NCBI RefSeq assembly: GCF_003334385.1
Contig: NZ_QOWN01000181.1
Strand: one strand, 5' to 3'
Origin: Escherichia coli
GTDB taxonomy: Bacteria > Pseudomonadota > Gammaproteobacteria > Enterobacterales > Enterobacteriaceae
Length of the DNA: 440 nucleotides
Below the pieces are notes generated by a model. It did not search any database, was not told the DNA's origin, and was given only the letters and a program-made list of their open reading frames with translations. The translations under genes were made by a program, and so were the position numbers. This document shows, piece after piece, positions 1 through 440 of this stretch; the stretch's first letter is position 1, and each line of letters starts with the position of its first letter.

Positions 1-440
1 GCCGTGGTGTGGACGCCCGTCAGCCTTCCCGTGTCGCTGTAACGGTACTCCCGGCTCTCCTGCGGGCCGCTGATGCGGATTAGCTGTCCGTTGTCGTTCC
101 AGTCGTAGTCACGGTCAAGCTGCGGAAGGTTCAGGTGCCTGCTCCGGAGCTGGCCGCTGGTATTCCAGGCGGTGGCAAGTTCATATGCCTCCCCGCCGAA
201 GCTGCGGGCCGTCTCACGGTGCAGCCTGTCCCGCGTGTACTCGACCAGCGGTGTTCCGCCCAGCTTCATCCCCGCAAGATAACCGCTGCCATACGTCAGC
301 CACTCCACCGGCGGCAGACCGTCCGGCTCCTGACGGGTCGCCAGCCCCTGTTCGCTGTACGCATGCCCCGTCTCATGCTCCCACAGCATCTCCCCCGTCT
401 CCGGGTTCTCCACCGTCTGCCGTTCGCCCGTCAGGCGGCC
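1..440 (-). CDS. rhs: Rhs family protein, internal fragment of the conserved YD-repeat core (partial at both ends; N-terminus toward higher coordinates, C-terminus toward lower coordinates)
   Basis: Seen in sequence: the minus-strand frame starting at base 440 is open for 146 codons (bases 3-440 in frame, bases 1-2 a partial codon), and all five other frames contain stops. Third-position GC is about 83% (121 of 146 codons end in G or C). The translation contains YD-repeat motifs (EYRYSDTGRLTGV, DRDYDWNDNGQLIRIS, GRLTGE) and the block VEWLTYGSGYLAGMKLGGTPLVEYTRDRLHRET, which I recognise from memory as part of the E. coli Rhs core. The family call is established knowledge plus recall, not a database search. 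Which paralogue (rhsA, B, C, D or another) cannot be decided from this fragment. Confidence 0.92.

Follow-up and report, generated by a model that had tools for sequence, protein, structure and literature searches.

The window, that is, the whole 440-nt stretch of DNA analysed here, is almost certainly an internal segment of a type VI secretion system (T6SS)-linked, rhsG-type Rhs core gene of Escherichia coli, encoding approximately seven YD-repeat β-hairpins of the shell wall. This identity explains its open reading frame, its unusual base composition and the multiple near-copies found per genome. The gene family is known, as are its fold and mechanism, and the fragment contains nothing new; its significance goes little beyond correct annotation and does not extend to new biology. 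The polymorphic toxins of the Rhs family, which bacteria use in competition, have been studied well, and their GC-rich, repeated cores are classically known in E. coli as substrates of recombination.

Six-frame translation of the 440 nt revealed a single open frame. Minus-strand frame 1, read from base 440, comprises 146 codons without a stop codon, and each of the five remaining frames is interrupted by one to six stops. The G+C content of the fragment is 66.6%, and it reaches 83% at third codon positions (GC3) in minus-strand frame 1. Because of this signature, we consider this frame to be the real coding frame. Plus-strand ORFs of 24-36 aa were rejected as antisense by-products of a GC3-rich gene, all frames other than minus-strand frame 1 containing stops. 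The coding feature is the following:

Positions 3 to 440, minus strand: internal coding fragment of an Rhs element core gene, without start or stop codon, as judged from the only open frame, DNA identity and the RHS_core match.

No direct repeats were found at the DNA level in the window, and therefore the periodicity described below exists only at the protein level. The sole DNA-level repeat in the window is a weak, overlapping 18-nt palindrome at positions 132-159 (83% complementary), which falls within the coding frame and probably arose by chance. The window gave no Rfam match at the gathering threshold. The Chi site (GCTGGTGG), considered for a possible link to the name "rearrangement hot spot", is absent from it.

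In order to identify the gene, we compared the window with 5426 complete E. coli genomes by megablast. In many of them, the chromosome contains all 440 nt at 100% identity, and these identical matches always fall within genes annotated as "RHS element core protein" or "RHS repeat-associated core domain-containing protein". A related copy of the window is present in 3708 of the 5426 genomes, at a median of two and a maximum of five places per genome. The gene context was inspected in three genomes with the identical sequence, namely NCTC86, CFSAN061761 and strain 300709. In NCTC86, the rhs gene is intact (4233 nt, 1410 aa, WP_066008979.1), and the window corresponds to residues 761-906 of its product. 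The identity is to annotated E. coli RHS core genes (NF041261) of the T6SS-linked, rhsG-type lineage, at the locus between T6SS/yafT and yafV. Compared to the K-12 paralogues, the window shows 75% DNA identity to RhsA and 78% to RhsD, with 72-73% identity at the protein level for both, indicating that it belongs to a distinct core subfamily. Over the core, the full proteins are 67.5% (RhsA) and 73.5% (RhsD) identical.

It was previously claimed, in an earlier note made from the letters of the window, that the minus strand encodes YD/RHS repeats. The profile search of the minus-strand translation that the note had asked for bore this out. The NCBIfam model RHS_core (NF041261) matched the fragment with an E-value of 3.5e-78 and 263.6 bits, and residues 1-146 are colinear with profile positions 756-905. 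NF041261 is an equivalog model of 1261 positions, and its whole-protein cut-off of 2000 bits is out of reach for a 146-aa piece. Pfam RHS_repeat (PF05593) matched aa 114-145 with an i-E-value of 1.5e-5. To score single units, we built a repeat-unit HMM; a first version, seeded from the protein itself, was partly circular and was redone leaving out everything near the window. With units from outside the window, the fragment scored 11.5 bits, whereas none of 300 shuffles exceeded 8.4 bits. Only the strongest unit of the window rose above 5 bits in this leave-out HMM, yet the fragment outscored every shuffle.

YD-like motifs could also arise by chance in a GC-rich open frame that is not part of an Rhs gene. 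In favour of this, the PF05593 match is the only Pfam repeat match in the fragment, and TIGR01643 (YD_repeat_2x), run on the fragment alone, stayed slightly under its cut-off (13.9 versus 15.8 bits). However, the probability of this explanation is practically nil, given the RHS_core match along all 146 residues, the 100% DNA identity to annotated Rhs genes, a repeat score that shuffled controls never reached, and a predicted structure that matches Rhs shells. We therefore regard chance as refuted by the DNA identity, the RHS_core match and the Foldseek matches presented below.

As part of an Rhs core, the window contains approximately seven hairpin units, of which five are complete and the two outermost are cut by its ends:

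Positions 423 to 440, minus strand: end of YD unit 0, GRLTGE, supported by a Pfam RHS_repeat match at protein residues 733-767 and a model strand at q34-42.

Positions 327 to 389, minus strand: degenerate YD hairpin unit 1, aa 18-38, with the core HAYSEQGLATR; consensus HxYxxLGxR, predicted strands q49-59 and q65-69.

Positions 261 to 308, minus strand: degenerate hairpin unit 2, WLTYGSGYLAGMKL, aa 45-60; motif WLTYGSGHLHG, predicted strands q76-81 and q85-91.

Positions 198 to 254, minus strand: degenerate hairpin unit 3, LVEYTRDRLHRETARS, aa 63-81; motif FERDxLHRE, predicted strands q94-101 and q107-112.

Positions 132 to 185, minus strand: YD unit 4, LATAWNTSGQLRSRHL, aa 86-103; YDxxGRL column block, predicted strands q117-123 and q129-134.

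Positions 69 to 116, minus strand: YD unit 5, DRDYDWNDNGQLIRIS; Pfam RHS_repeat match at aa 114-145, motif YxYDxxGQL, predicted strands q141-145 and q151-155.

Positions 3 to 59, minus strand: YD unit 6, REYRYSDTGRLTGVHTT, with its core at 12-47, running off the end of the window; Pfam RHS_repeat match at aa 114-145, predicted strands q159-165 and q171-178.

The earlier note had listed two clear units and the end of a third. All three are real and lie exactly where it had placed them: YRYSDTGRLTGV at bases 12-47 is aa 132-143, DRDYDWNDNGQLIRIS at bases 69-116 is aa 109-124, and GRLTGE at bases 423-440 is aa 1-6. The last of these ends a unit that starts upstream of the window, reads VHYGYDDKGRLTGE in the full gene, and is matched by Pfam RHS_repeat with an E-value of 3.6e-4. 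The count was too low, as the window holds about seven units and not three, and unit 4 (AWNTSGQLRSR), which has the canonical W-N-x-x-G-Q-L spacing, was absent from the list. Likewise, DRDYDWNDNGQL is indeed a YD unit, but the fit to YDxxGxL that had been proposed for it is two residues out of register. In the alignment with homologues, W114-N115 falls on "YD", with Y112 as the first tyrosine of YxYD. In the leave-out HMM, unit 6 scored 9.1 bits. The score of unit 4 in the unit HMM, 7.7 bits, is partly circular, as this unit was in the seed.

The distances between the anchors of successive units are 31, 22, 18, 24, 22 and 20 residues, with a mean of approximately 23; they follow the listed peptide positions, two anchors being shifted by one residue accordingly. 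The clear units (22 and 20) thus show the expected spacing of 20-25 residues, which the four degenerate units between them follow only approximately (18-31). Pfam left protein residues 768-873, corresponding to aa 8-113 of the window, without a repeat match, a stretch that might be taken for an interruption of the periodicity, and unit 1 gave no Pfam repeat match on either the NCTC86 protein or the fragment.

To analyze the degenerate units, residues 730-929 of the NCTC86 protein were used as query against 1.84 billion representative proteins. This search yielded 344 matches at E ≤ 0.001, and an alignment of 33 homologous sequences, down to 28% identity, was evaluated. The consensus of the homologues has a YD-type motif at every unit across residues 730-929, in the order YDxxGxL, YDxxGRL, HxYxxLGxR, WLTYGSGHLHG, FERDxLHRE, YDxxGRL, YxYDxxGQL, YxYDxxGRL and YxxDPAGNRL. 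The middle units are degenerate in this particular protein (HAYSEQGLATR, WLTYGSGYLAGM and EYTRDRLHRE) and recognisable in the homologues. At the position of unit 1, homologues carry a canonical H-x-YDxLGNR. Unit 2 is aligned in Tse5, 7q97 and 8qja, and conservation of its residues Y81, G82, G84 and G88 (numbered along the 200-aa query) reaches 90% or more across the aligned Rhs cores. In unit 3, R101 and R106 are invariant in the same numbering, and D102, L104, H105, E107 and R110 likewise reach 90% or more.

When Rhs cores are compared down to 28% identity, no part of the region is better conserved than the non-canonical units WLTYGSGYLAGM and EYTRDRLHRE (window positions 198-308, aa 45-81). 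Indeed, the conservation of aa ~45-81 (WLTYGSGYLAGMKLGGTPLVEYTRDRLHRE) across distant Rhs cores is much above that of ordinary YD units. It is conceivable, though rather doubtful, that this conservation marks a functional site of the shell, such as a contact with the toxin or a point at which the shell opens, beyond a mere role in the wall. Even if true, this would add no more than a detail to a system already known.

We then considered the fold. An AlphaFold2 model of residues 730-929 (mean pLDDT 93.7) consists entirely of β-hairpins, with 17 strands in 200 residues. Thirteen of these strands are within the window, where they are paired as hairpins with tight turns on the YD-type motifs. Each repeat of the window is accordingly predicted by the model to form a β-hairpin. 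When the model was compared with the PDB using Foldseek, the top 12 matches were all T6SS Rhs effectors (Tse5 8cp6, 7q97, Tse15, 8qja-d and 7pq5), with E-values from 3e-11 to 4e-08. These were followed by the BC components of Tc toxins, among which RhsP (8h8a/8h8b) took ranks 15-16, and then by teneurins. The TM-scores are moderate (0.55-0.57), which is to be expected when the query is an isolated strip of a closed shell. In the published Tse5 structure, the shell spans residues 48-1168, of which 48-124 and 1092-1168 are plug domains (PMC10684867). The fragment aligns to Tse5 residues 673-802, inside the shell, and the window therefore maps to the barrel wall. For Tse5, the tyrosine of the YD unit is described as facing the cavity, and the glycine as permitting the turn (PMC10684867). 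The proposal in the earlier note of a β-shell of the Rhs/teneurin type is therefore well supported by the identity of the gene, the alignment to solved shells and a hairpin model that matches Rhs, Tc and teneurin structures.

The shared fold raises the question of whether the window could come from another class of YD-repeat protein, such as a Tc-toxin TcB/TcC component, a WapA-like wall-associated protein or a teneurin-like protein, rather than from a T6SS Rhs effector. The Tc toxin BC components (YenB/YenC2 4igl, TcdB2-TccC3) and the teneurins have the same YD-repeat spiral β-sheet shell and appear both among the fold matches (ranks 13-39) and among weak sequence matches; TcC also has the Rhs-associated core motif in common with this Rhs protein. 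However, their identity is only 9-16%, and their domain architectures, secretion routes and roles differ. The full NCTC86 protein matches Pseudomonas aeruginosa Tse5 (PDB 8cp6), which has a homologous shell, with an E-value of 1e-112, compared to approximately 3e-06 for YenC2 (2.7e-06 and 3.7e-06), and the YenC2 match runs via the C-terminal core motif only. Further solved relatives matched by the full protein are 7q97, 8qja and Tse15. The solved T6SS Rhs effectors (Tse5 8cp6, 7q97, 7pq5, 8qja-d, Tse15 8uy4 and RhsP 8h8a) share the motifs WLTYG(S/P)GHL and RDxLHRE with the window, although identity is only about 26% in the aligned structural region. The Tc and teneurin families have architectures of their own, namely the β-propeller gate of TcB with its TcC partner and the EGF, NHL and FN-plug domains of teneurins. 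With these families, the Rhs protein has in common only the fold and the generic core motif; sequence matches to them are weak (E-values from 1e-25 to 1e-4) and local, and the gene context is that of a T6SS.

The full NCTC86 protein, by contrast, passed the equivalog model for the E. coli Rhs core, scoring 2487.6 bits against NF041261 (curated cut-off 2000) over profile positions 3-1261. TIGR03696, the Rhs-associated core, matched residues 1180-1257 with 80.9 bits (cut-off 32.5), and TIGR01643 reached 159.7 bits on the full protein. The 1410 aa were scanned against Pfam in pieces, which gave 11 RHS_repeat (PF05593) matches at E ≤ 0.001, an RHS match (PF03527) with an E-value of 1.1e-12, and DUF6531 at residues 50-127. 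The Rhs-associated core ends in the DPxGL motif and is followed by a variable tip; its end, which lies outside the window, reads ...YYDPLQGRYITQDPIGL...DPLGL (also ...QDPIGL...DPLGL) and precedes a tip of 153 aa. In the first 340 residues, Pfam found no PAAR domain and only DUF6531. The first ~35 residues (MGGGKPAARQGD...) resemble a PAAR domain on visual inspection only.

In NCTC86, hcp and vgrG of a type VI secretion cluster immediately precede the rhs gene. The gene order is hcp, vgrG, rhs, a small ORF that overlaps rhs, and the gene for a transposase of the ISAs1 family, and the group lies between the T6SS genes and yafV. Both the linkage to vgrG/hcp and a small downstream ORF, a putative immunity gene, are thus present. 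E. coli Rhs elements share this organization: the core is GC-rich and ends in DPxGL, the variable tip is AT-rich, and a small ORF and an ISAs1/H-repeat element follow. It is highly improbable that the window derives from another YD-repeat class, and the Tse5 match, the equivalog model and the position directly after hcp and vgrG refute this for the genomes carrying the identical sequence. In E. coli T6SS loci, the rhs gene downstream of vgrG has been named rhsG and is regarded as a probable effector (PMC10711316).

The G+C content of the window is very high for E. coli, and values of approximately 58-66% are found along the NCTC86 core (L003:8000-11500). At the boundary between core and tip it falls sharply, and values of 34-43% are found across the tip and the gene presumed to confer immunity. 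A GC-rich core followed by an AT-rich tip is the pattern of classical Rhs elements. High G+C is known for Rhs cores and is usually taken as a sign of foreign origin.

The C-terminal tip of the NCTC86 protein after DPLGL (L003:11480-11950) matches the YkuD/L,D-transpeptidase catalytic domain of Pfam with an E-value of 2.5e-5. This suggests a toxin directed at peptidoglycan, similar in kind to Tlde1, a T6SS effector; one paper on Tlde1 (PMC9638812) contains no discussion of Rhs-fused versions. The tip differs from that of Tse5, whose C-terminal toxin (Tse5-CT) is a pore former (PMC10684867). The small ORF (130 aa, L003:11931-12323) overlaps the end of rhs, encodes a hydrophobic N-terminus and lies in the region of 34-43% G+C. 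It has no match to an NCBIfam family and is presumed to be the immunity gene; a periplasmic location of its product would fit a cell-wall toxin. A match to the UPF0257/YnfC lipoprotein family (Pfam/NCBIfam, E-values 0.15 and 0.0054) was far below the cut-off and was discarded as noise.

Considering that toxin encapsulation, self-cleavage and T6SS-dependent delivery are known for homologues (PMC10684867, PMC8765631), the window can be placed within a likely mechanism. Its approximately seven consecutive YD hairpins would form part of the wall of the spiral β-sheet shell, or "cocoon", of the Rhs protein. By homology with the solved Rhs effectors, this shell would enclose the variable C-terminal toxin. 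The N-terminal part of homologous proteins mounts on the VgrG spike and thereby allows delivery by the T6SS, and the appearance of the N-terminal sequence, together with the example of Tse5, suggests a PAAR-like N-terminus as a putative means of attachment here. At the end of the core, the aspartyl-protease motif DPxGL would cut the toxin free inside the shell, as in homologues, and the product of the small downstream gene would protect the producer, being the presumed immunity protein. Encapsulation, autoproteolysis, secretion and toxicity of this protein are all proposed by analogy with the literature on these homologues.

Finally, the window might come from a decayed Rhs remnant, that is, a core that has been truncated or frameshifted, or an orphan piece that recombination or IS activity has left behind. 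Such a remnant would still read as YD repeats but would form no functional shell. In two of the three genomes inspected (CFSAN061761 and strain 300709), the gene carrying the identical 440 nt is an annotated pseudogene. In CFSAN061761 (L001:5549-10953), the rhs core is truncated at its N-terminus and borders immediately on a truncated tssM/IcmF pseudogene, and the locus lacks vgrG as well as most T6SS genes. This junction looks like the rhsG-tssM deletion of E. coli ST410-B/H24 (PMC10711316), and loss of the T6SS through such a deletion is documented in ST410 (PMC10711316). In strain 300709, the rhs gene with the identical stretch is frameshifted and lies behind a second, truncated rhs core. 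On the other hand, the frame of the window is fully open with a GC3 of 83%, and intact genes with the identical sequence exist, e.g., in NCTC86. Origin from a remnant is therefore the less likely case, albeit one with appreciable weight. It bears on the state of the gene and not on the identity of the sequence, and both states occur among genomes with the identical sequence.

Strain 300709 (L002:3076-11952) carries its two rhs cores in tandem, with an ISEc1 (H-repeat) transposase gene and a "dsORF-h1" gene between them. The copy of the window in the upstream, truncated core is 90.9% identical and has 12 extra bases in two gaps. This arrangement illustrates Rhs cores as substrates for recombination.
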